Shown piece by piece: positions 3,566 to 17,063 of a DNA stretch of 64,000 bases. Positions within the stretch are counted from its first letter, which is position 1. Each line of letters begins with the position of its first letter. Location: the NCBI GenBank assembly GCA_024233595.1, contig JACKPK010000001.1, positions 153,260-217,259 of the forward strand. Reading direction: 5' to 3'. The notes below the pieces were generated by a model. The model saw only the letters and a list, made by a program, of their open reading frames with translations, had not been told where the DNA came from and did no database searches. The stretch comes from Deltaproteobacteria bacterium (lineage in GTDB: Bacteria; UBA10199; JADGCS01). Made by a program: the position numbers and the translations under genes.

Positions 3566-4955
3566 GATAAGGATGATGGCAAGTGAATGAGTCCCGCCAC
3601 CTGAAAGTAAACTAATAAGCTCATGGCATCCATTAAAAGAAATGCACAAAACGCCCGAACTGAGTTTAGAGAATCCCTGGTTTAAAGACGATCAAAAACA
3701 AATGGCATAAAAAAGGTTCCAAAAGACCGAAAAAACAGCCACGCTGAACACTTAAAAGACAAAGCCAATGCTCATTTTCTATTTCGCCCTATGAAAACGC
3801 AAAACGCCATAGGCATAAACCAAAGTTGCCAACACCAAGGACACCAAAAAAGTAATGCTGTTTTGTCCCCACAAAGCACGGCGTGCGCGTGTTTGTTCAA
3901 AATCTTTACTCAAGACACCTTCATACACCAGGGTCGTGCTTTGGGTCGCAATGCTTCCCCTAAACACCAAGACCAAGGGCGCAAAACAAAAAGCCACAAC
4001 CTCTTTTGGCAAGTGACCAAAAGTAACGCAAATGATTTCCGGAACAAATGGGCCCACCCAAAAACAACAGCCCATACCAAACGGCACCGAAGCAAAGGCT
4101 CTCCAAAAGAAAGTCTTCAATGGCCTCTGGTTCTACCCTACCAATTGCAAAACTTCCTCGTGCTGCTCATCGCGAATGTAATCGATGACATCGTCCACCA
4201 TGACCACACCAGCCAATTTGCCTTCGCGATCCACAACCGGGAGACTCACAAAATTATACTCTTCTACATAGCGAGCAGCTTTTCTTACCCAGATCATACA
4301 AGCTCACAGTATGAGCACATGCGAATCATGAATTCTTTGAGCACACGTTTGCTTAGCACTTGCAAAAGCTGTTTAAGCGAAATGACGCCAACCAGGTTTT
4401 CAAAGTCATCGGTGATGTAAGGTAAAAAAGTTTTCGACTTCATCCGGCATCTGCTTGTTGGATTTTAGAAATCGCCTCGGCAGCTGCATGTCGTTTTGGT
4501 TCACGGAAAAAACGTTCACCGCCATGAAATACGACCACAACTATCGTCTTCGTACTGCGAAGTCGTTTACTTTAACGCTGCATGGGGCCTTTGATCACAC
4601 GTTGACAAAGCTCTGCTACCGCCAAATCCTCGTCTGAATCTTCAGCCAATAAATTCGCGGCTTCGTCTTCCGAAAGATTCTGCAAAACATGCACAATGTG
4701 TTCTTTGTCTTTGGTGATTTCCAGATAGGTCTCGACAAACTTGCCCTCTAACTCCACAAAAGCATCGGCTTCGATCTCGGTGCCTTTGATGAGCTTCAAC
4801 AAGGCCACAGCCTCGTCATCAGCAAACTGCCTTAAAACAGAAGCCACTTCCGAGGGGTGAGACTTTAGGAGCAAACGTTTCGCATGCTCCAAGGCATCGC
4901 GTCGCATGAGACGCTTGATGCTTTGTAATAGGATGTCAGATTTGCTGACCTTCAT
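3562..4955 (-). CDS. mgtE: Magnesium transporter MgtE, full-length span but multiply frameshifted
   Basis: MgtE_N (SHPSEVASVL, NLSEDEAANLL), CBS pair fragments (LPVVDREGKLAGVVMVDDVIDYI) and C-terminal TM remnants (GTFFMPFVFDRL, MDAMSLLVYFQVA) ending in a TGA at 3562 that overlaps the recO ATG. Confidence 0.8.
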
Positions 4956-5849
4956 GATATTTGCATGTTATTGAATTTGCCCAAACCTTGGAATTCGGTG
5001 AAGCGGGTCTTGATGTCTTCAAAGTTGATTTCTTTCAATCGTTCACAACTGAATTTTTCGACATTAAAACTAGCCATGACCGAACCACAAATCACAGCGG
5101 TTTTCATGGAGTCGTAATCAAAGCGTTCACAACGATCAAGGTAACCAAGCATACCACCAGCAAAGCCTCCACCAGCACCTGTTGGGTCATTCCGTCATCA
5201 ATTGGCAAACTGGAGCGCTGAAATCTCTTGTCCAAAAACAAAAAGCGCCGTATTCCCCTTGTTTGATCACAACAATTTTGGGGCCCCACTCTTGCAACTG
5301 ACGAGCTGCTTTCACAAGATTGGATTGCTCTGTCAGCATGCGGGCTTCGCCTTCGTTCAGGGTCAGCAAGTCCACCTTAGCCAAGGTTTTAATAACCGAT
5401 TCTTTTTTGTGATTGATCCACAGATTCATGGTGTCCATCACAACCAATTCTGATTCACCCGCTTTATCGATAACGGCACGTTGCTGATCAGGATCAATGT
5501 TGGCCAAAATAAAATGCGAATTTTTGTAAGACTCAGGCAAAACCGGCTCGTAGTTTTCGATCGTTGAGCTGTGCCAAAGTGTGCGCCGTGTTCATGTCAT
5601 TACTCTGGTGCCCCACCAACGAAAGGTTTTCTTGCCTTGCATCACCTGCAAACCATCGGTGTGATACCGGTCGCGGAACATGTGCTCATCGGGAAAGTCA
5701 TCCCCCACCACGGCAATCATATTCACATCGGTGAAAAAACTCGCCGACATAGAAAAGTGCGACGCTGTGCCGCCCAAGCCATCTTTGATTTCTCCAAAAG
5801 GCGTTTTCACATCGTCAAAAGCCACGGTTCCAATTACTGTTACTGCCAT
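4952..5849 (-). CDS. PfkB/ribokinase-family carbohydrate or nucleoside kinase, frameshifted
   Basis: Three ORF pieces: VIGTVAFDDVKTP...LGGTASHFS; LANIDP...MDTMNLWI...LNEGEA...VVIKQGEYGA; anion-hole segment PTGAGGGFAGG; stop overlaps the mgtE start (ATGA). Confidence 0.85.
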
Positions 5850-5923
5850 TTTTACATTCCTTTCATCTAGCCGTTGGATCTACTATTTTGCCACAACAAG
5901 CCTCTTCTATCTTAAACTGTTCC

Positions 5924-6787
5924 CTAGTCCTTAAAATATTTCCCAATGATGGGTTCTAATCTTTGGATCACATCTTTGCTGATCAATTCACGCTTGGTCA
6001 TGACCGCCGATTTCAAAACGCCTTCGCTCTCGAGCTTTTGATCAAAATCAAAGGCCTGTACCGCAGACACCAAGATTTTTTGAGCGTTTGCGATGTTTTT
6101 ATTCAGAGTCGCAATCACCTGCTCTGTTGTAACATGATCATGCTCCGGATGCCAACAATCATAGTCAGTCGAAAGCGCCAAAGTGGCGTAATCGATTTCG
6201 GCTTCACGCGCGAGCTTGGCTTCTTGCAGGTTGGTCATGCCAATGACATCGGCACCCAATTGACGATAAAAATTGCTTTCGGCAATGGTCGAAAACTGTG
6301 GCCCTTCCATGCACACATAAGTGCCTTTCTGATGACACTCAGCTCCAATTTTCTGGCAAGCCGCAATCAAGATTTTGCGCAAATAGCCGCTCACGGGGTG
6401 AGCCAAACTCACGTGCCCCACAATGCCTTTTTCGAAAAAAGTGGATGGACGCTCACGCGTGCGATCAATGAACTGATCCACAATCACCATATGCCCGGGC
6501 ACGATCTCTTGTCTTAAAGAGCCCACCGCCGAAACCGAAAAAATAGCTTTTACACCGACTTTTTTAAAAGCCCAAATGTTAGCGCGGTAATTGATTTCTG
6601 AAGGCGAGTACCGATGCCCTGCCCCATGGCGCGCCAAAAACACAACCGGCACACCTGCCAATTTGCCAATGCGCAAGGGATCAGAAGGCATCCCAAAAGG
6701 AGTTTCGATTTGACGCTCTTCTTCAAGTTGAAATTCTTCCATGTCGTAAAGGCCACTGCCTCCGATGATCCCAATGTACTGACTCAT
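5924..6787 (-). CDS. mtnP: S-methyl-5'-thioadenosine phosphorylase
   Basis: IGIIGGSGLY, FLARHG, NYRANIWA, EGPQFST, GMT..EA.LARE, STDYDCW motifs. Confidence 0.93.
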   Translation of the reverse strand: MSQYIGIIGGSGLYDMEEFQLEEERQIETPFGMPSDPLRIGKLAGVPVVFLARHGAGHRYSPSEINYRANIWAFKKVGVKAIFSVSAVGSLRQEIVPGHMVIVDQFIDRTRERPSTFFEKGIVGHVSLAHPVSGYLRKILIAACQKIGAECHQKGTYVCMEGPQFSTIAESNFYRQLGADVIGMTNLQEAKLAREAEIDYATLALSTDYDCWHPEHDHVTTEQVIATLNKNIANAQKILVSAVQAFDFDQKLESEGVLKSAVMTKRELISKDVIQRLEPIIGKYFKD

Positions 6788-6851
6788 AATGTTATCCTTT
6801 TTTGAGTTCTCAGGTCTTGCACTTTACGCTTTGCTCTGCGAGAAAACACTC

Positions 6852-8228
6852 ATGCAAGACATTGCCCTAGATAAAATTTTGCAAGCGACTAAAAACAGCG
6901 ACAATGCGTTTGCTGAAATCTTTATTGAGTCATCAGAATTAGAGGAACTCAACTTTAGCAACAACAAACTCGAAAGCTACAAACACGGCAGCGACCAAGG
7001 AGCCGGCATTCGTCTCATTGAAGGTCTTGATTCGGCTTACGCCTACAGCAACGACCTGAATGAACAAAACCTGCACGCCTTAGCGCAATCCTTAAAATCA
7101 GCCTTTCCCGCAGCTGCATCGCATAAAAAGATCACCCTCAAAAAACAAGGAACAAATTACCTTAAAAACAGCAAGCATCTTGACCCCTTACAAGACCACA
7201 AGCAGAAGCTTGCCCTCTGTGAAGAAGCCAACGAGCTGGCCAGACAAAAAAGCCCACTTGTGCACCAGGTCGAGATCCAATTGAATCAAAGTTTATCGCA
7301 ACGCCTCATTGCCAACTCAGATGGTCTTTTGGTCAACAGCCCTCTTGATCAAATCACGCTCGCCATCACAATCACCATTAAAAAAGACGACGACCTCATC
7401 ACCGCGCTAGAAGCTTTGGCGTTCACAGGAAACTTTAAAGACATCCTCAAACAAGACTGGAAATCAAAAGTCATCCAAACCACAGAACGAGCCATTCAGC
7501 AGCTTTCCGCACGCACAATCAAAGGCGGTCCCATGCCAGTTGTGATCTCGAGCGAAGCCGGTGGCACTTTGATTCACGAAGCCGTTGGCCATGGTTTAGA
7601 AGGTGACTTGGTTGCAGAAAATTTATCCGTGTTCAAAAACAAACTCGGCACCGCGATTGCCTCTCCTAAAATCACAGTGATTGACGATCCCACACTCAGT
7701 AAAAATTATGGGTCTTACCCTTACGATGACGAAGGCACCAAAACACAAAAAACAGTTTTGATCGAAAACGGCATTTTAAAAAACTACCTTTGCGATCGCC
7801 TTGCTGCCAAACGTTTGCAACTGCAACCCACCGGCAATGCCAGGCGTGAATCATACGAACACCGACCACTTGTGCGCATGAGTAACACTTACGTGGCGCC
7901 AGGGTCGGACAACCCACAAGAAATTTTAGCCAGTGTCGACAAGGGGCTTTTTGTCAAACGCATGGGAGGTGGGCAAGTCGATACCGTCACCGGCGAATTT
8001 GTGTTTGAAGCCGAAGAAGCCTACCTGATCAAAAACGGAAAAATCACCGATCCGATTAAGAACGCTTCATTAATTGGCAATGGCCCGCGCTTGCTCAAAG
8101 AAATCGACATGATTGGCAATGATTTGCACTTTTGTTCTGGAGTGTGTGGCAAAGACAATCAATCCGTGCCTGTCACAGACGCGATCCCCACTTTGCGTAT
8201 CCCCAACATGGTTGTGGGCGGAAAATAA
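6852..8228 (+). CDS. tldD: TldD/PmbA family metallopeptidase
   Basis: GTLIHEAVGHGLEGD (HExxxH), DDEG, GNARRESY, RMSNTY, GVCGKDNQSVPV; ATG at 6852 preferred over the upstream start in the ORF track. Confidence 0.9.
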   Translation: MQDIALDKILQATKNSDNAFAEIFIESSELEELNFSNNKLESYKHGSDQGAGIRLIEGLDSAYAYSNDLNEQNLHALAQSLKSAFPAAASHKKITLKKQGTNYLKNSKHLDPLQDHKQKLALCEEANELARQKSPLVHQVEIQLNQSLSQRLIANSDGLLVNSPLDQITLAITITIKKDDDLITALEALAFTGNFKDILKQDWKSKVIQTTERAIQQLSARTIKGGPMPVVISSEAGGTLIHEAVGHGLEGDLVAENLSVFKNKLGTAIASPKITVIDDPTLSKNYGSYPYDDEGTKTQKTVLIENGILKNYLCDRLAAKRLQLQPTGNARRESYEHRPLVRMSNTYVAPGSDNPQEILASVDKGLFVKRMGGGQVDTVTGEFVFEAEEAYLIKNGKITDPIKNASLIGNGPRLLKEIDMIGNDLHFCSGVCGKDNQSVPVTDAIPTLRIPNMVVGGK

Positions 8229-8230
8229 AA

Positions 8231-8956
8231 CTAAAATAAATTTTTAAAAGCCGCACGACGAACGCGCTTTTTGTGATTCGAAACACTGTCCCACAAAGCT
8301 AAGCTCAAAGGACATTGAGCCTCTGCCGCTTGCACTTGGTCATAATCAAAAACAGCTGTTGTTCTGATCAAAGCACTTGTTTGCTCTGCGCTTAAAGGCT
8401 GATTGTTTTGCTCGCATAAAAAATCAAGTTGCAAGAGACTTTCTAAAGAAAGAGACGCGGCCTTGTTTTGGGCACAAGCACCACAACGCACACAATCGAG
8501 TGCCTGCTGATTTTTAGGAACACCTGCGAATGCCTTTGCCTGCTTGTAGTTTTGTTCTGTGAGCGAATGCTCGTGAAACCCAATGGGAACAATCCACTCT
8601 GCCAAAGCTTTTGTTTCGTCTTCGCTTTGGCGCAGGTCAACCCAAAGATCACGGATCACAGAAAACCCTGCCAAAGGCTCGACAACAATGGGCTGCACCA
8701 ATTCATCAAGAACCACATCGCGAATCGACAAAGCAGCCCCGTTAACAATCACCATGGTTTTACTTTGCTCAAAAGACGACTGCGCTTCCCACACAACCGG
8801 CGCGACTGATTCGCCGTTTAAATTAATGGGGCGTTCTTGAATGACTTGCAAAGCTGTTTCTAAAGTGGCTCTCTCTGGTAACTGCAATTGAAATTGCTCC
8901 CAGTAAAAACTCTCGTTTGCTTTTTGGCGCCGGATTTTTAACAACACTGTTTTCAT
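8231..8956 (-). CDS. Divergent SdhB-like protein retaining only one [4Fe-4S] ligand set
   Basis: Bacillus-type SdhB scaffold (IQERPINLNGE..PVVWE, QPIVVEPLAGFSVIRDLWVD, AAFKNLF). No [2Fe-2S] Cys; CVRCGAC plus distal QCP retained. Confidence 0.85.
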   Translation of the reverse strand: MKTVLLKIRRQKANESFYWEQFQLQLPERATLETALQVIQERPINLNGESVAPVVWEAQSSFEQSKTMVIVNGAALSIRDVVLDELVQPIVVEPLAGFSVIRDLWVDLRQSEDETKALAEWIVPIGFHEHSLTEQNYKQAKAFAGVPKNQQALDCVRCGACAQNKAASLSLESLLQLDFLCEQNNQPLSAEQTSALIRTTAVFDYDQVQAAEAQCPLSLALWDSVSNHKKRVRRAAFKNLF

Positions 8957-10560
8957 TATCCTGCCACCTCCAAGCGCTGACGTCGCTTTGGCTTAACAAT
9001 GGCGTGCTGCAAGTTTTTGAGCTGGTAATCGTAACGCCCTTGTTTAAGCGTGATGCAAGAATCTTGTAGGAAAAGATCATCGCGTGGTTCGTAAAAACCA
9101 ATTTTGTAATGCACGCCACGCGATTCATCGCGTTTTTCGGCCGCCATACTCAACGCTGGCGCCAATTCCAAAGCAGTGAATAAATCACGAGCGCGTGCTA
9201 ATTCTTGGTTGGCGTGCTCAGATTGATCATGCAAACCAAGACGACTGGCCTTTTCTTTAAGGGCTTCACAACGCGTGGCAAATTTTTGCAAGACAGCGTT
9301 GTCGCGCATAGGACCCAAGGCAAAATGACAGAGTTCGCTCAATTCTCTTTTGAGCGCGCTGAGGTTTTCGGGTCCGCTTAATTCCAAAAGATCTTGCACC
9401 CGTCTTTTTTGATCATCTTTAAGAGCGGGTAAAAATTGCTTGGCACTAAGAGAAGAATCACCACCCCAATGCGTTTTCTGCATAAGCTGATTGGCCAGGT
9501 CCAAACCCGTTTGCATCTGCAGAGCAAAGGCATTGCTTGGCAGACAACCGGCACCAAACAAGGCATTGCTGGCAAAGCCAATGGCATAAAGCCCCGACAA
9601 ATCTGTTTGGTGTGCGTCATCTGTGGCAAGCCCACCTAAAAAGTGTTTGAACCCAGGACGCACCGGGATTTGTTGATCGCCCTGCTCTAAGAAAATGCTC
9701 TCGCCCGTTTTAGCCGTGGCTTGCACCTTGGCCATGGCACGGCTGATTAAAAAATCAGGCAAGTCCTGCCAATCGCTATACCAGTCTTCTAAAAAGTAAA
9801 AACGCTCGCCATTGTTTTTTTGCAAAAACAAGCGACCAGCTTTTTGATTTAAAACATCGAGCGATAAGTAAGAGCTGCCCACTTGCGAAGACGCAGTCAA
9901 AGGATGAAAGGCAATGAACTCAGCGCCCTGCAACGAAGCGCCTTCTTTTAAGCAGCTCAATAAAAAGCCATCGTTTTGAAACGATGACTGTGAAAAAAAC
10001 AAAGATTGCGCAAATCCTTCTGCACAAACCACCGCTTCAGCAGAAAAGGCTTCGATTTCCATGCTGGCCGCGTTCTCGGCCACAACACCCGCCACACCTT
10101 GCTCGGTGTTTGCCAAAGCCAAGGGACGCCAGTGTTCTAATACACGCACGCGATGACTGGCTTGATGACAACGCAACTGCTGCAATAATAATTGGTAAGC
10201 GCGCTGCTCATTGAATTCATAAAAACCGTTCAGACCCAAAGATGAATTGGCGGCTTTGAGCTCTAGCCCCAAGGCTTGCAAGTATTGTAAATAAGAAGCG
10301 CTAGATTGACAGAGTTCGCGGATCTTAATGTGATTGCCTAAGAAACCCGCGAAACGCACGCTGTCTAAAAAATGTTGGTCTTGATCTTTTTTGCTTAAGC
10401 TAGCGCGAAACACACTTTGGCCAAGAGCCTGCGGCGCCACACCCAAAGTGCGTTGCGAAAACAACAACACCTGATGCCCTGCCATTGCCATTTCGTTGGC
10501 CAAACAAATGCCTGCAACCGAAGCGCCTAAGATGATCACACGTTGAGAATGATTTTTCAC
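8956..10560 (-). CDS. Divergent SdhA-like flavoprotein homolog lacking the covalent-FAD His and catalytic Arg residues
   Basis: Collinear with Bacillus-type SdhA (VIILGASVAG, EHWRPL, EFIAFHP, YFLEDWY, KHFLGGL, GLYAIG, GPENL..L..EL, RDESRGVHY). GTG at 10560 overlaps the upstream TGA; its TAA overlaps the sdhB-like ATG. Confidence 0.85.
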   Translation of the reverse strand: MKNHSQRVIILGASVAGICLANEMAMAGHQVLLFSQRTLGVAPQALGQSVFRASLSKKDQDQHFLDSVRFAGFLGNHIKIRELCQSSASYLQYLQALGLELKAANSSLGLNGFYEFNEQRAYQLLLQQLRCHQASHRVRVLEHWRPLALANTEQGVAGVVAENAASMEIEAFSAEAVVCAEGFAQSLFFSQSSFQNDGFLLSCLKEGASLQGAEFIAFHPLTASSQVGSSYLSLDVLNQKAGRLFLQKNNGERFYFLEDWYSDWQDLPDFLISRAMAKVQATAKTGESIFLEQGDQQIPVRPGFKHFLGGLATDDAHQTDLSGLYAIGFASNALFGAGCLPSNAFALQMQTGLDLANQLMQKTHWGGDSSLSAKQFLPALKDDQKRRVQDLLELSGPENLSALKRELSELCHFALGPMRDNAVLQKFATRCEALKEKASRLGLHDQSEHANQELARARDLFTALELAPALSMAAEKRDESRGVHYKIGFYEPRDDLFLQDSCITLKQGRYDYQLKNLQHAIVKPKRRQRLEVAG

Positions 10561-11177
10561 AGCACGCTCCATTGGTTCACAAAAGCGATGACTCCCAAGC
10601 CAAATAACAACGCGTTCCCACCTAACCAAAGATTACGGAGCAATGAACCTTGATCCCAGCGTGAGACAAAAGCGTGTTCTGTGAAAAAAGACCGCCCTAA
10701 AAGATAAAGGTACGCAATGAGTGCTGCAAAACCAACCCAGTAAGCGCTCATCAGAAAGACATTGGCGTGCAAAGCAAGCACCATCTGATAAACCTGATGA
10801 CCCATGAGTCCCTGTTGCACAGCTTGCCCCCAATAAAAAAGGTGCGCGCCCCAAAAGGCCGCAACCAAAGGCAAAAGCAAATTTTGCAAAGTGGGAAACA
10901 AAAAGATTTTTTTGTTTAAAACCTGCGGCAACACCAACAGCTCTTTTAATAAAAACAAACTCAGAGGGACAATGAGAAACACGAGCTCAACAAATAAAAA
11001 GCCTGGGAATTGTTGCCACAAAAACAACGCCTCCAAAACCTGTTTTGGAGAATACAAAAGCGTGTAAACAGCCAACAGCTGCCACAACACAAAGCCAAAT
11101 AGGCAAAGCAGTGCCCACGCGTTTGCAAAAAACGCAAAAAGGTAGTTTTTGATGACGTCTTGAGGACAGGCGGTCAT
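10557..11177 (-). CDS. Divergent SdhC-like five-TM membrane anchor lacking most heme His ligands
   Basis: About 206 aa with five hydrophobic segments, first gene of the C-A-B order, directly downstream of mdh; only one His at a heme-ligand-like position (FWGAHL). Confidence 0.7.
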   Translation of the reverse strand: MTACPQDVIKNYLFAFFANAWALLCLFGFVLWQLLAVYTLLYSPKQVLEALFLWQQFPGFLFVELVFLIVPLSLFLLKELLVLPQVLNKKIFLFPTLQNLLLPLVAAFWGAHLFYWGQAVQQGLMGHQVYQMVLALHANVFLMSAYWVGFAALIAYLYLLGRSFFTEHAFVSRWDQGSLLRNLWLGGNALLFGLGVIAFVNQWSVL

Positions 11178-11222
11178 GCGCTCATCATGTGCTCTCACTG
11201 TGCAAAGGTCAAGCTTGAAGGC

Positions 11223-12176
<954 letters not shown>

Positions 12177-12187
12177 CTATTTTTAAA

Positions 12188-13443
12188 TTACATATTAGAC
12201 ACAATCGCGTCCCCAAATTCAGAGCATTTGAGAAGCGTTGCGTTTTCCATTAAACGTTCAAAATCGTAAGTGACCTTTTTTTCTGAGATGGTTTTTTCCA
12301 TGGCGCTCACGATTAAATCCGCCGCTTCCTGCCACCCAAGGTACTCTAACATGAGCACACCAGATAAAATCACCGATCCAGGATTCACTTTGTCTAAACC
12401 AGCGTACTTAGGCGCTGTGCCGTGAGTGGCTTCAAAAATAGCCACACCCGTGTTGTAGTTGATGTTGCCACCAGGCGCAATGCCAATGCCACCAACCTGA
12501 GCCGCCAAAGCGTCTGACACATAGTCACCATTTAAATTGAGAGTCGCGATGACATCGTACTCAGCAGGACAAGCAAGATTTGCTGCAAGAACGCATCGGC
12601 AATGACATCTTTAATGATGAGTTCTTTGCCATCTTTTTTAATGACCTGCCAAGGACCACCATCTAAATCTTTTGCGCCAAACTCATCTTTAGCCACTTGG
12701 TAACCCCAATCACAAAACGCACCTTCAGTGAATTTCATGATGTTGCCTTTGTGCACCAAGGTGACCGACTTGCGGTTGTGATCTAAGGCGTAGTTGATGG
12801 CCGCACGCACCAAACGAGCTGTTCCTTCTTGCGAAACAGGTTTAATGCCAATGCCTGATGTTTCTGGGAAACGAATTTTTTTAACGCCCATTTCGTTTTC
12901 GATGAAAGCGATGACTTTTTTGGCTTCGTCGGTTCCTTCTGCCCATTCAATGCCGGCGTAGATGTCTTCTGTGTTTTCACGAAAGATAACCATATCGACA
13001 AGCTCTGGTTTTTTAACCGGAGAAGGCACGCCCGAAAAATAACGCACAGGGCGCAAACAGGTGTAAAGGTCCAAACGCTGACGCAAGGTCACGTTCAAAC
13101 TACGAATGCCTTTGCCAACAGGCGTGGTCAAAGGTCCTTTAATGGACACAAGATGTTTTTCGATTTCGGTGATTGTTTCTTCAGGCAAAAAGTTTGCGGG
13201 GCAATCGTTACCGTAAACCTCTTTGGCTTTTTCGCCAGCGTAAACTTCGTACCAAGCGATTTTACGATCGCCGTTGTAGGCTTTTTGCACAGCAGCATCG
13301 AACACACGCGACGCAGCTTTCCAGATATCGGGGCCAATGCCATCACCTTCAATGAAAGGGATGATTGGGTTTTGCGGAACATCGAGTTTTCCGTTTTTAA
13401 TGGTGATATTTTGGCCATCACTGGGTCGTTTTAAGTAAGTCAT
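12188..13443 (-). CDS. icd: NADP-dependent isocitrate dehydrogenase, single 1-bp deletion near 12560
   Basis: [46 protein letters not shown]. Restoring one C gives [33 protein letters not shown], joining both ORF-track pieces. Confidence 0.95.
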
Positions 13444-13675: not shown

Positions 13676-14344
13676 ATGTTTTCGTTTCTTTGTTCCTCTC
13701 TTGGTAAAAAATACCTCATGGCTTTAACAGGCCTTGGCCTCATCGGTTTTGTGATCGCACACTTAATCGGAAACCTTCAGGTTTTTGCTGGTCCCGAAGC
13801 CATTAACTCTTATGCTCAAACTTTAAAAGACCTTGGCCCCCTTCTTTGGGTCGCACGCGGTGGTCTCATTGTGCTCTTTGTCACTCACCTCACTTTAGCG
13901 TTGCAACTTAACCGCACCAACCAAATGGCTCGGCCCATTGCTTACGCCAAAGCCGACACCATCAAAGCCACCCTCACTTCGCGCACCATGGTTTTGAGTG
14001 GCCTCCTTATATTATTGTATGTGATCTACCACCTCTTGCACTTCACCATCCACATCATCGACCCATCCTACACAGCGCTTCTGGACGCGCAAGGTCGTCA
14101 CGATGTCTACCAAATGATCATCGCCGGCTTTTCGCACCCTGTGATCACAACCACTTATTTGCTCGCCATGTTTGTGTTGGCGGCTCACTTGCACCACGGC
14201 GCATCCAGTGTGTTTCAAACATTAGGACTTAACAACGGCAAATACCGTCCTATCACTTCTCTTATTGGACCAGCTTTGGCATTCTTGGTGTTTGTGGGTT
14301 ACGGCTCTATCCCTGTTGGGGTCATGTTGGGCTGGATCAACTAA
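13676..14344 (+). CDS. sdhC: Succinate dehydrogenase/fumarate reductase diheme cytochrome b subunit
   Basis: SSLGKKYLMALTG, His ligands in FVIAHL, FVTHL, IYHLLH and AAHLHHG. Confidence 0.93.
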   Translation: MFSFLCSSLGKKYLMALTGLGLIGFVIAHLIGNLQVFAGPEAINSYAQTLKDLGPLLWVARGGLIVLFVTHLTLALQLNRTNQMARPIAYAKADTIKATLTSRTMVLSGLLILLYVIYHLLHFTIHIIDPSYTALLDAQGRHDVYQMIIAGFSHPVITTTYLLAMFVLAAHLHHGASSVFQTLGLNNGKYRPITSLIGPALAFLVFVGYGSIPVGVMLGWIN

Positions 14345-14392
14345 GGGCATTGCAGATCATTTCATTATTTTTAATTATTTAGGATAACGCTT

Positions 14393-16306
14393 ATGAAACT
14401 CGATTCAAAAATTCCTAGTGGGCCAATCGAAAAAAAATGGGATCAACACAAGTTCGACATGAAACTTGTGAACCCGGCCAACAAAAGAAAATTCAAAGTC
14501 ATCATTGTGGGAAGTGGTTTGGCTGGAGCTTCTGCTGCCGCCACCATGGCTGAGCTCGGATACGACGTTCACTGCTTCACCTTCCACGATAGCCCAAGAC
14601 GCGCGCACAGCATTGCGGCTCAGGGTGGCATCAACGCCGCTAAAAATTACCAGAACGACGGCGACTCCATTTACCGTTTGTTCTACGATACCGTCAAAGG
14701 CGGTGACTTCCGATCGCGCGAAGCCAACGTTTACCGATTGGCACAAGTGAGCGTGAACATCATCGATCAATGCGTGGCGCAAGGTGTTCCTTTTGCACGC
14801 GACTACGGTGGCTATTTGGCCAACCGCTCTTTTGGTGGCGCGCAGGTTTCAAGAACCTTTTACGCTCGCGGGCAAACAGGCCAACAACTTTTATTGGGTG
14901 CCTACTCTGCTTTGAGCCGTCAGATTGGCGCGGGCAAAGTCAAAATGTACAACCGCACCGAAATGCTCGATTTGGTTTTGGTCGATGGTCACGCACGCGG
15001 CATCATCACTCGTAATTTAAAAACCGGTAAAGTCGAATCACACGCGGGCGACGCAGTGGTCTTGGCCACTGGTGGTTACAGCAACGTTTTCTTTTTATCG
15101 ACCAACGCCATGGGTTGTAACGTGACAGCCGCTTACCGTGCTTACAAAAAAGGCGCGGGCTTTGCGAACCCTTGTTACACACAGATTCACCCCACTTGCA
15201 TCCCTGTTTCGGGCGATCACCAAAGTAAACTCACTTTGATGTCCGAATCACTCAGAAACGACGGCCGCATTTGGGTTCCCAAACAACAAGGCGATAAACG
15301 CAAGCCAAGTGAAATTCCCGATGCAGAACGCGATTACTACCTAGAGCGCAAGTACCCAAGCTTTGGTAACTTGGCACCACGCGATATCGCATCGCGCTCT
15401 GCTAAAGAAGCCTGTGATGAAGGTCGCGGGGTTGGCGAAACTGGATTGGGTGTTTACCTTGATTTTAGAGATTCAATCAAACGTTTGGGCAAAGATGTCA
15501 TTGAGCAACGCTATGGCAACTTGTTCGAAATGTACGAACGCATCACAGACGAAAACCCATACCAAGTGCCCATGCGCATCTTCCCTGCTCCTCACTACAC
15601 CATGGGTGGACTTTGGGTCGATTACAACCTCATGAGCACAATCCCAGGCTTGCATGTTTTGGGTGAAGCTAACTTCTCAGATCATGGTGCCAACCGTTTG
15701 GGGGCCAGCGCTCTCATGCAAGGTTTGGCAGATGGTTATTTTGTCATCCCTTACACCATTGGTCATTACTTTGCTTCGCACAAAATCGAAAAGATCACCG
15801 AAGATCACCCTGCGTTTAAAGAAGCCGAAGCCGAGGTGAATCAAAAAATCAACAAACTCCTCAATGTTAAAGGCAGCCGCACAACAGATTCGTTCCACAA
15901 AGAATTAGGACGTGTCATGTGGGATAACTGCGGCATGGCTCGTAACAAAAAAGGTTTGGAAGAAGCCCTTAAAAAAATCCCAAGCATTCGTGAAGAATTC
16001 TGGAACAACGTTAAGGTTCTTGGCGAAAACGAAAACTACAACGTGGCACTCGAAAAAGCGGGCCGCGTTGCGGATTTCTTGGAGTTTGGTGAAATGATGT
16101 GCTTAGATGCCCTTCGTCGCGAAGAATCGTGTGGTGGTCATTTTAGAACCGAACACCAAACAGAAGAAGGCGAAGCCAAACGAAACGACAAAGACTTTTC
16201 TCATGCTACAGTTTGGGAGTTCCAAGGTGTTGGCAAAGAACCTGTTGAGCACCGCGAGCAACTCGAGTTTGAAAACGTGGCATTGGCAGTAAGAAGTTAT
16301 AAATAA
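14393..16306 (+). CDS. sdhA: Succinate dehydrogenase/fumarate reductase flavoprotein
   Basis: [17 protein letters not shown] (covalent-FAD His), [39 protein letters not shown] all intact. Confidence 0.97.
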
Positions 16307-16319
16307 AAAGGACAAGACC

Positions 16320-17063
16320 ATGAATTTGACCTTACACATTTGGCGACAAAAAGATCGCAACGACACAGGAAAAATGACCATCTACAAACTAGAAGACGTC
16401 AGCCCTGATATGTCTTTTTTGGAAATGTTAGACGTCCTAAACGAAAAGTTAGAAGTCGAAGGCGAAGAGCCCGTTGCTTTTGACCACGACTGTCGTGAAG
16501 GCATTTGCGGCACCTGCTCGCTCATGATCAATGGCAAAGCGCACGGACCACGTGCCAGCACAACCACTTGCCAATTGCACATGCGTGAATTCAAAGACGG
16601 CGACGAGATTTTCATTGAGCCTTGGCGCGCTGAAGCTTTCCCGATTGTGCGAGACTTAGTTGTCGATCGTTCTGCTTTTGACAAAGTCATTCAGGCAGGC
16701 GGCTACATTTCGGTGAATACGGGTAACGCGCAAGACGCCAACTGCATCCCTATTTCAAAAGAGCAAGCCGATATCGCTATGGATGCTGCGGCTTGCATTG
16801 GTTGCGGTGCCTGTGTGGCTCAATGTAAAAATTCATCTGCCATGTTGTTTGTGGCCGCTAAAGTGTCTCAGTTTGCCAACTTGCCCCAAGGTCAAGCAGA
16901 ACGCTACGCACGTGCAAAAAACATGGTGGCCGTCATGGACGACCAGCACTTTGGCAGCTGCACCAACCAATACGAATGTGAAGCGGCTTGCCCCAAAGAC
17001 ATCAGCGCTGATTTTATCGCGCAGCTAAACCGAGACTTTATGAAAGCAGGTCTGACAAAATAA
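16320..17063 (+). CDS. sdhB: Succinate dehydrogenase/fumarate reductase iron-sulfur subunit
   Basis: [10 protein letters not shown]...[28 protein letters not shown]: all three cluster motifs present. Confidence 0.96.

Follow-up and report, generated by a model that had tools for sequence, protein, structure and literature searches.

The closest described relatives of the protein studied here (SdhB') are the iron-sulfur subunits of type B complex II, namely FrdB of Wolinella succinogenes (1QLB/2BS2) and the Bacillus-type SdhB. SdhB' shares their two-domain fold (Foldseek TM 0.6-0.75), and its operon has the sdhC-A-B gene order and the single five-helix anchor of type B complex II. Unlike type B FrdB, it keeps 4 of the 11 ligand cysteines and scores far below the curated cut-offs. 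Further differences from type B complex II are a partner flavoprotein without catalytic residues and an anchor without haem ligands. We regard the complex of SdhB' as a pseudo-enzyme derived from type B complex II.

Cluster N7 of complex I (NuoG/Nqo3) is off the electron pathway, is reportedly kept for stability and not for electron transfer, and was lost in many lineages. The [4Fe-4S] cluster predicted for SdhB' resembles N7 in that it belongs to a respiratory-complex subunit and would be too distant for electron transfer; the ligands of N7 are also lost elsewhere as a whole set. N7, however, is part of a working enzyme, whereas the whole complex to which SdhB' belongs (the Y type, described below) appears non-catalytic, and its cluster would have a structural role. 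The iron-sulfur sensors FNR, IRP1/aconitase and SoxR couple an exposed or labile cluster to a DNA- or RNA-binding output. SdhB' is similar to these sensors in its predicted single cluster that is not used as a wire, but no output domain accompanies it in SdhA', SdhB' or SdhC'. Soluble fumarate reductases and L-aspartate oxidase bind FAD non-covalently (PMC9557727) and lack the covalent-FAD His, and loss of this residue is also the first step of change in the Y type (G011, G020 and G010). These enzymes keep the catalytic His/Arg, in contrast to SdhA' of the window.

Complex II types in the class

The DNA analyzed (the window, 64,000 nt) belongs to the genome designated G000, and all of its relatives are MAGs or metagenomic contigs. 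Complex II genes were observed at two places in the window, the second of them next to mdh.

13676..17063, plus strand: canonical sdhCAB of the X type, its catalytic residues complete and all its 11 Cys intact (Pfam, motif and Cys alignments)
8231..8956, minus strand: sdhB', Y-type SdhB/FrdB homologue, 241 aa (ORF call, Pfam, NCBIfam, AF2, Foldseek)
8956..10560, minus strand: sdhA', Y-type flavoprotein, 534 aa, GTG start (Pfam/NCBIfam, motif table)
10557..11177, minus strand: sdhC', Y-type five-helix anchor, 206 aa (alignment to Y anchors, homology to the L109 anchor)
11223..12161, minus strand: mdh, 45 nt upstream of sdhC', a conserved neighbour of the Y operon (ORF call, synteny)

When 40 related genomes were searched with each SdhB copy, three complex II types (Y, X and Z) were observed. 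The Y type, to which sdhB' belongs, is present in most of these genomes and adjoins icd-mdh. The X type is found in a patchy set of genomes, with 61-72 % identity to the window copy, and the Z type in G005, G008, G020 and probably G010. All 12 reference genomes of the order carry Y, and every one except G011, an incomplete MAG (84 % complete), has X or Z as well. The arrangement [X]-icd-mdh-[Y]-MTAP is shared with G001-G003, which belong to the same family. Among the metagenomic contigs, L110 has sdhCAB-X directly followed by C'A'B'-Y, and L139 and L140 have the gene order mdh-C'-A'-B', which continues in L140/L141 with a Na/Pi cotransporter and MTAP. A contig scan with Mdh returned mostly unrelated Alphaproteobacteria.

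Taken together, gene content and order show icd-mdh-sdhCAB of the Wolinella/Bacillus type B (the Y type) as the ancestral set of the class. The X-type sdhCAB is the predicted working complex II of this genome. SdhB' and SdhB-X of the window show hardly any similarity (E 5e-4), and this value together with the different subtype ruled out sdhB' as a recent duplicate of the window's sdhB-X. Identity of SdhB' to the SdhB of the relatives, whether their single or their second copy, is 27-33 %.

Some neighbouring genes and one relative showed irregularities. The tldD gene (6789-8228) lies convergent between sdhB' and MTAP with 2 nt between the stop codons, and in G001 sdhB' runs straight into MTAP. 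The icd gene (12188-13443) reads as one ORF of 303 aa and another of 110 aa, with an apparent 1-nt frameshift at about 12520-12545 relative to the intact orthologue of G002, which is either real or an assembly error. In G007, two ORFs of 94 and 171 aa (L018 3606-4288) make up the X-type sdhB, and the Y flavoprotein of this genome is degenerate; if the gene is truly split, G007 would be without an intact complex II.

The mdh-sdhC'A'B' operon

The sdhB' gene is the final gene of an mdh-sdhC'A'B' operon with overlapping, translationally coupled starts. The stop codon of sdhC' overlaps the start of sdhA' in GTGA, and that of sdhA' overlaps the start of sdhB' in TAATG, with GGAGGTG upstream; a GGAG-type Shine-Dalgarno sequence precedes both overlapping starts. 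Translation of the three sdh genes, which follow mdh, would thus still be coupled. A promoter and terminator scan gave results at chance level, and the operon contains no regulator gene.

The flavoprotein SdhA' has no covalent-FAD His and has lost the catalytic Arg. Its motifs read GVAPQ, HPL, LNQKAG, KHFLGG and GAGCLPS, compared with RSHS, HPT, RGEGG, HYxMGG and GANRLG in the catalytic set. The flavin-binding motifs are degraded as well, with GASVAG for GxGxxG, AEGF for TGG and AIGF for AAGE. For the anchor SdhC' no Pfam match was obtained, and alignment to Y-type anchors showed one of five conserved His, so that the bis-His haem site is absent. Relative to a functional complex II, the catalytic flavoprotein set is lost and the redox chain from FAD to quinone/haem is broken. 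The alignments and motif comparisons show a redundant ancestral operon that would be unable to catalyse succinate/fumarate turnover or to wire flavin to quinone.

Cofactor ligands in SdhB'

The sdhB' product matched Pfam Fer2_3 with 31.1 bits (gathering score 27). Its score against the NCBIfam model PRK08640 (Bacillus-type SdhB) was 84.9 bits, far under the cutoff of 244, that against TIGR00384 was 44.8, also under threshold (cut-off 88), and none of the Fer4 Pfam models matched. The N-terminal plant-ferredoxin-like domain was confirmed by Fer2_3 and by AF2 (pLDDT 90-98, residues 1-110). Descent and the sdhC-sdhA-sdhB gene neighbourhood place the protein in the family, since it falls inside the Y clade and is syntenic with intact Y operons. 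A homology search with the sdhB' ORF returned only itself, and phmmer against PDB gave nothing at E <= 0.01.

SdhB' was aligned with the Y-type SdhB from 26 related genomes and 93 near-full-length metagenomic relatives, and Wolinella FrdB (2bs2_B, E 5e-44) served as the anchor of the SdhB family profile. The four [4Fe-4S] ligands follow the assignment established for complex II, as in E. coli SdhB (C149/152/155/216) and W. succinogenes FrdB. The following parts of sdhB' are relevant to the ligands.

8717..8794, minus strand: former [2Fe-2S] loop, residues 55-80, VWEAQSSFEQSKTMVIVNGAALSIRD, with all four Cys replaced (alignments)
8462..8494, minus strand: motif 1 remnant CVRCGACAQNK, residues 155-165 (alignments)
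8414..8416, minus strand: extra Cys181 (FLCEQ) in a non-ligand column (alignment)
8309..8350, minus strand: motif 2 remnant FDYDQVQAAEAQCP, residues 203-216, with the last Cys215-Pro216 alone kept (alignments)

SdhB' contains five Cys (155, 158, 161, 181 and 215). Cys155, Cys158 and Cys161 align with the first, second and third Cys of CxxCxxCxxxCP, and Cys215-Pro216 with the last column of Cx5Cx3CP (motif 2). The protein therefore retains 4/4 ligands of [4Fe-4S], 0/4 of [2Fe-2S] and 0/3 of [3Fe-4S]. The four-Cys [2Fe-2S] motif Cx4Cx2Cx11C is gone, its ligand columns being S, gap, T and I, and the former loop is the part of the N-domain with the lowest pLDDT. CxxCxxC and the final CP alone remain of the full CxxCxxCxxxCP and Cx5Cx3CP: the fourth Cys and the CP loop of motif 1 disappeared through a deletion of about 6 residues, and the first and second Cys of motif 2 are replaced by Y and A. 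P0115, which is also without [3Fe-4S], has an extra Cys within one alignment column of Cys181; both lie in the helix that follows motif 1, perhaps by chance.

The sequence-only reading had described ORF 8231-8956 as an SdhB homologue that keeps exactly the [4Fe-4S] ligand set. All of the strings that it quoted are present, including WEAQSSFEQSKTMVIVNG (residues 56-73, N-domain), and the alignment columns agree with the ligand set. Its Cys inventory was correct for the ligands and overlooked the fifth, non-ligand Cys181. Its statement that the N-domain has no Cys in any frame holds for the gene's own frame; the other two frames do contain Cys codons, are stop-rich and show no CxxxxCxxC pattern. 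We also agree that SdhB' cannot serve as a wire from FAD to quinone, as ligands are missing for the clusters at both ends of the chain.

Two independent Logan contigs (SRR28385526 and SRR28385528) are 100 % identical to the window over the operon, with no polymorphism between them, and the sdhB' sequence is thus real and not an assembly artefact. An assembly error or frameshift hiding Cys codons was ruled out by the frame check and by these identical contigs. Contigs L140 and L141 (SRR28385527 and SRR28385526), from the same run series, represent another, related organism whose Y operon is also without [2Fe-2S].

Erosion of the Y-type flavoprotein

The SdhA-Y catalytic set (RSHS, HPT, RGEGG, HYxMGG and GANRLG) is intact in 8/8 genomes from outside the order. 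Most of these have no complex II besides Y, but G034 carries X in addition and G037 shows another SdhB-like match. Inside the order, the set is degenerate to varying degree in the 11 genomes examined out of 12, as well as in G020 and in four metagenomic loci. The covalent-FAD His is absent from the Y flavoprotein in all examined genomes of the order. The catalytic His/Arg are lost in all of them as well, except in G011, which lacks the covalent-FAD His alone. In addition, the capping domain (HPT to HYxMGG) was deleted in at least three lineages (G002, G003, G005 and L139), leaving SdhA-Y proteins of about 486-491 aa at the following positions.

L014 9059-10531 (G002): SdhA-Y without capping domain
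L015 7400-8860 (G003): SdhA-Y without capping domain
L021 2273-3739 (G005): SdhA-Y without capping domain
L139 1602-3062: SdhA-Y without capping domain

G000 is the extreme case of SdhA-Y degeneration among the examined genomes. The motif comparison shows that the substrate-binding His/Arg of the Y flavoprotein were lost step by step, together with the capping domain in some lineages. The Y type also evolves fast, as SdhB-Y identity between genera is 34-52 % vs 72-85 % for Mdh and 60-78 % for SdhB-X. SdhB-Y of G000 shares only 25-31 % identity with any other, although one local, partial alignment with G003 reaches 42 %.

These losses bear on the idea that the operon encodes an enzyme with a new function, in which SdhA' would bind a new substrate or cofactor and the single cluster of SdhB' would pass electrons to a different partner. 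Loss of the covalent-FAD His in known homologues abolishes succinate oxidation and leaves fumarate reduction (PMC9557727). Since the least eroded member, G011, lacks this His alone and the same change gives a fumarate-reducing-only type in homologues (PMC9557727), its state points to a change of function early on and not to loss at once. However, the flavin-binding motifs themselves are degraded in G000, the capping domain is missing from G002, G003, G005 and L139, and no new conserved motif was found across the degenerate set. A new catalytic function is thus very improbable.

Order and frequency of cluster losses

When SdhB' was compared with 1.84 billion representative proteins using phmmer (exhaustive search), 164 matches were obtained, of which the best non-self match was 34 % identical. 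No other sequence among these 1.84 billion representatives has the four-Cys pattern of SdhB'. All Y SdhB orthologues of the reference genomes keep 11/11 Cys, as do most metagenomic relatives, so the expectation of the sequence-only reading that these four Cys alone would be invariant among orthologues failed.

The two closest relatives of SdhB' (L109 and L140, both metagenomic) lack the [2Fe-2S] set only. SdhA and SdhB trees independently pair G000 with L109 (bootstrap 96 and 86), and G000, L109 and L140 form a clade with 98 % support, in which all three are without [2Fe-2S] and G000 alone is without [3Fe-4S]. Loss was therefore stepwise: trees and alignments together show that the flavin-proximal [2Fe-2S] was lost first, in the common ancestor, and the quinone-proximal [3Fe-4S] later, in G000 alone. 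The anchor of G000, and of no other member, also lost four of its five conserved His, as the alignment shows.

Losses were tallied over 59 Y-clade SdhB sequences.

[2Fe-2S], at least five independent losses: G000/L109/L140; P0011; P0019; P0033/P0024 (partial); P0118/P0119
[3Fe-4S], two complete and two partial losses: G000; P0115 (same deletion of about 6 residues); P0032 and P0054 (partial)
[4Fe-4S], no losses: 4/4 in every credible Y-clade sequence

An apparent loss of C-terminal clusters in 11 low-ranking hits was rejected, since these metagenomic gene calls contain frameshifts or are chimeras, with tails rich in Arg and Pro.

The preferential keeping of the [4Fe-4S] set proposed by the sequence-only reading is borne out, as the other sets were repeatedly lost in the Y clade and this one is 4/4 throughout. 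The accompanying figure of 1/330 is based on the wrong null, because ligands are lost not independently but cluster by cluster; the loss of a first ligand leaves the rest of its cluster free to drift. The realistic space is one of 8 cluster states. With equal risk for each cluster, zero [4Fe-4S] losses among 7-10 events has a probability of (2/3)^7 to (2/3)^10 (P ~0.06-0.02). The clade-wide sparing of [4Fe-4S] is thus suggestive and of modest significance, given that the match list was gathered with a CxxCxxC-containing query. For SdhB' itself, retention of 4/4 [4Fe-4S] Cys equals the base rate of conserved columns (78 %; 0.78^4, P ~0.37) and, taken alone, does not demonstrate special selection.

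Evidence of selection on the operon

The three genes sdhC'A'B' comprise 981 codons with zero stops, where about 33-100 would be expected at 0.5-1.5 neutral replacements per site. Their in-frame coding scores (0.25-0.32 per codon) are like those of neighbouring genes, with the frames clearly separated. SdhB' keeps 25/32 of the non-Cys columns that are >=80 % conserved, 43/173 of the variable columns and 0/7 of the ligand positions that served the two lost clusters (P = 2e-4, one-sided Fisher test on column retention). From this contrast, the fold was maintained and the loss was specific to two cofactor sites. The AF2 model of SdhB' had pLDDT 81 and pTM 0.75, with the N-domain very confident outside the former cluster loop, and the top 32 Foldseek hits of the model were all SdhB/FrdB chains. 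The operon also stayed open through the three long branches of G000, L109 and L140 (1.1-1.7 substitutions per site).

An alternative is that the Y operon is functionless in G000, simply happens to be free of stops and frameshifts so far, and retains the four Cys by chance. In each of the two trees the G000 branch is the longest of the clade, at about 1.4-1.6 substitutions per site. G000 is also the one member that combines two lost clusters, a degraded GxGxxG and an anchor with one of five His. At 1.79 Mb (78 % complete) the genome is small, the neighbouring icd reads as frameshifted, and the base-rate value of ~0.37 for 4/4 Cys is what chance survival would give. Against this stand the absence of stops in 981 codons where neutrality predicts tens, the normal codon-usage signal, the intact coupling overlaps and Shine-Dalgarno sites, and the retention of conserved SdhB' columns three times better than that of variable ones. 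L109 and L140 also keep their [2Fe-2S]-less operons open over equally long branches. We consider simple decay unlikely. Because the G000 branch is the longest and all cofactor sites but one are eroded, selection in this lineage may nevertheless have ended recently.

Proposed role of the remaining cluster

We favour the reading, at a probability of roughly 60 %, that the operon encodes a non-catalytic relic of complex II in which the remaining [4Fe-4S] would be a structural core, kept for some non-catalytic role. The four remaining Cys would still bind [4Fe-4S]. This cluster would hold the two Cys motifs together at the core of the C-terminal domain and would therefore be needed for folding, which would explain why this one site was never lost in the clade. 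The folded complex would be kept by selection for a role other than catalysis.

The sequence-only reading had offered a sensor or a structural cluster, and among these options the structural cluster fits best. As a sensor, the [4Fe-4S] would report O2, redox state or iron, with SdhA' and SdhC' as a signalling scaffold. Such a function would agree with a site that is the only one never lost in the clade, with an intact and coupled operon adjoining TCA-cycle genes, and with a cluster that, judging from known complex II geometry, would be more than one hop from any partner and useless for wiring. However, no output domain (DNA-binding, kinase or other) was found in SdhA', SdhB' or SdhC' by Pfam/NCBIfam, and the flavoprotein, the Fe-S subunit and the anchor are all eroded together. 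The central cluster of complex II is buried and not solvent-exposed (1NEK, 1QLB), which counts against sensing. The four-Cys pattern is limited to a single lineage, so a "sensor" state is not conserved, and relatives with two or three clusters are kept equally well. A sensor is quite improbable, and a structural brace is the more likely role of the [4Fe-4S] cluster.

A wider proposal, which we put forward tentatively and regard as doubtful, is that the Y operons of the order encode long-lived "pseudo-complex II" membrane assemblies with a function unrelated to succinate/fumarate turnover, for example as scaffold, regulator or reporter of Fe-S status for the adjacent TCA/respiratory genes. If so, [4Fe-4S] would be the sole indispensable cofactor and SdhB' the minimal natural form, and the sdhC'-sdhB' pair of contig L142, without sdhA', would be another stripped-down form.

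Full-text literature searches found no description of such a bacterial SdhB or of complex II relics. Apart from the role of SdhB' itself, the clade represents a natural deletion series of complex II, in which the operon stays open and coupled across an order of uncultured bacteria but has shed different combinations of its features: the covalent attachment of the flavin, residues for catalysis, the capping domain, the [2Fe-2S] and [3Fe-4S] sites and the ligands of the haem. The series tells which cofactor sites of SdhB are dispensable and which is not, namely the central [4Fe-4S], and it bears on the folding of Fe-S subunits and on the origin of pseudo-enzymes from respiratory complexes. Metabolic reconstructions of these MAGs become inflated when these genes, annotated as "succinate dehydrogenase iron-sulfur subunit", are counted.

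Other observations

Contig L142 (JGI 3300037311, 1502-2978) contains a Y anchor of 233 aa, then a [2Fe-2S]-less SdhB' and then sucC-sucD, with no flavoprotein gene between anchor and SdhB'. When the window was compared with Logan contig L137 (SRR28385528), positions 5681-12002 were identical and positions 4101-5680 differed by 54 indel columns and 19 substitutions. A PfkB-family kinase that is one gene of 306 aa in L137 appears as three ORFs in the window (5592..5849, 5187..5540 and 4952..5152). Positions 4101-5680 of the window are either a poor-consensus patch or a decayed allele.
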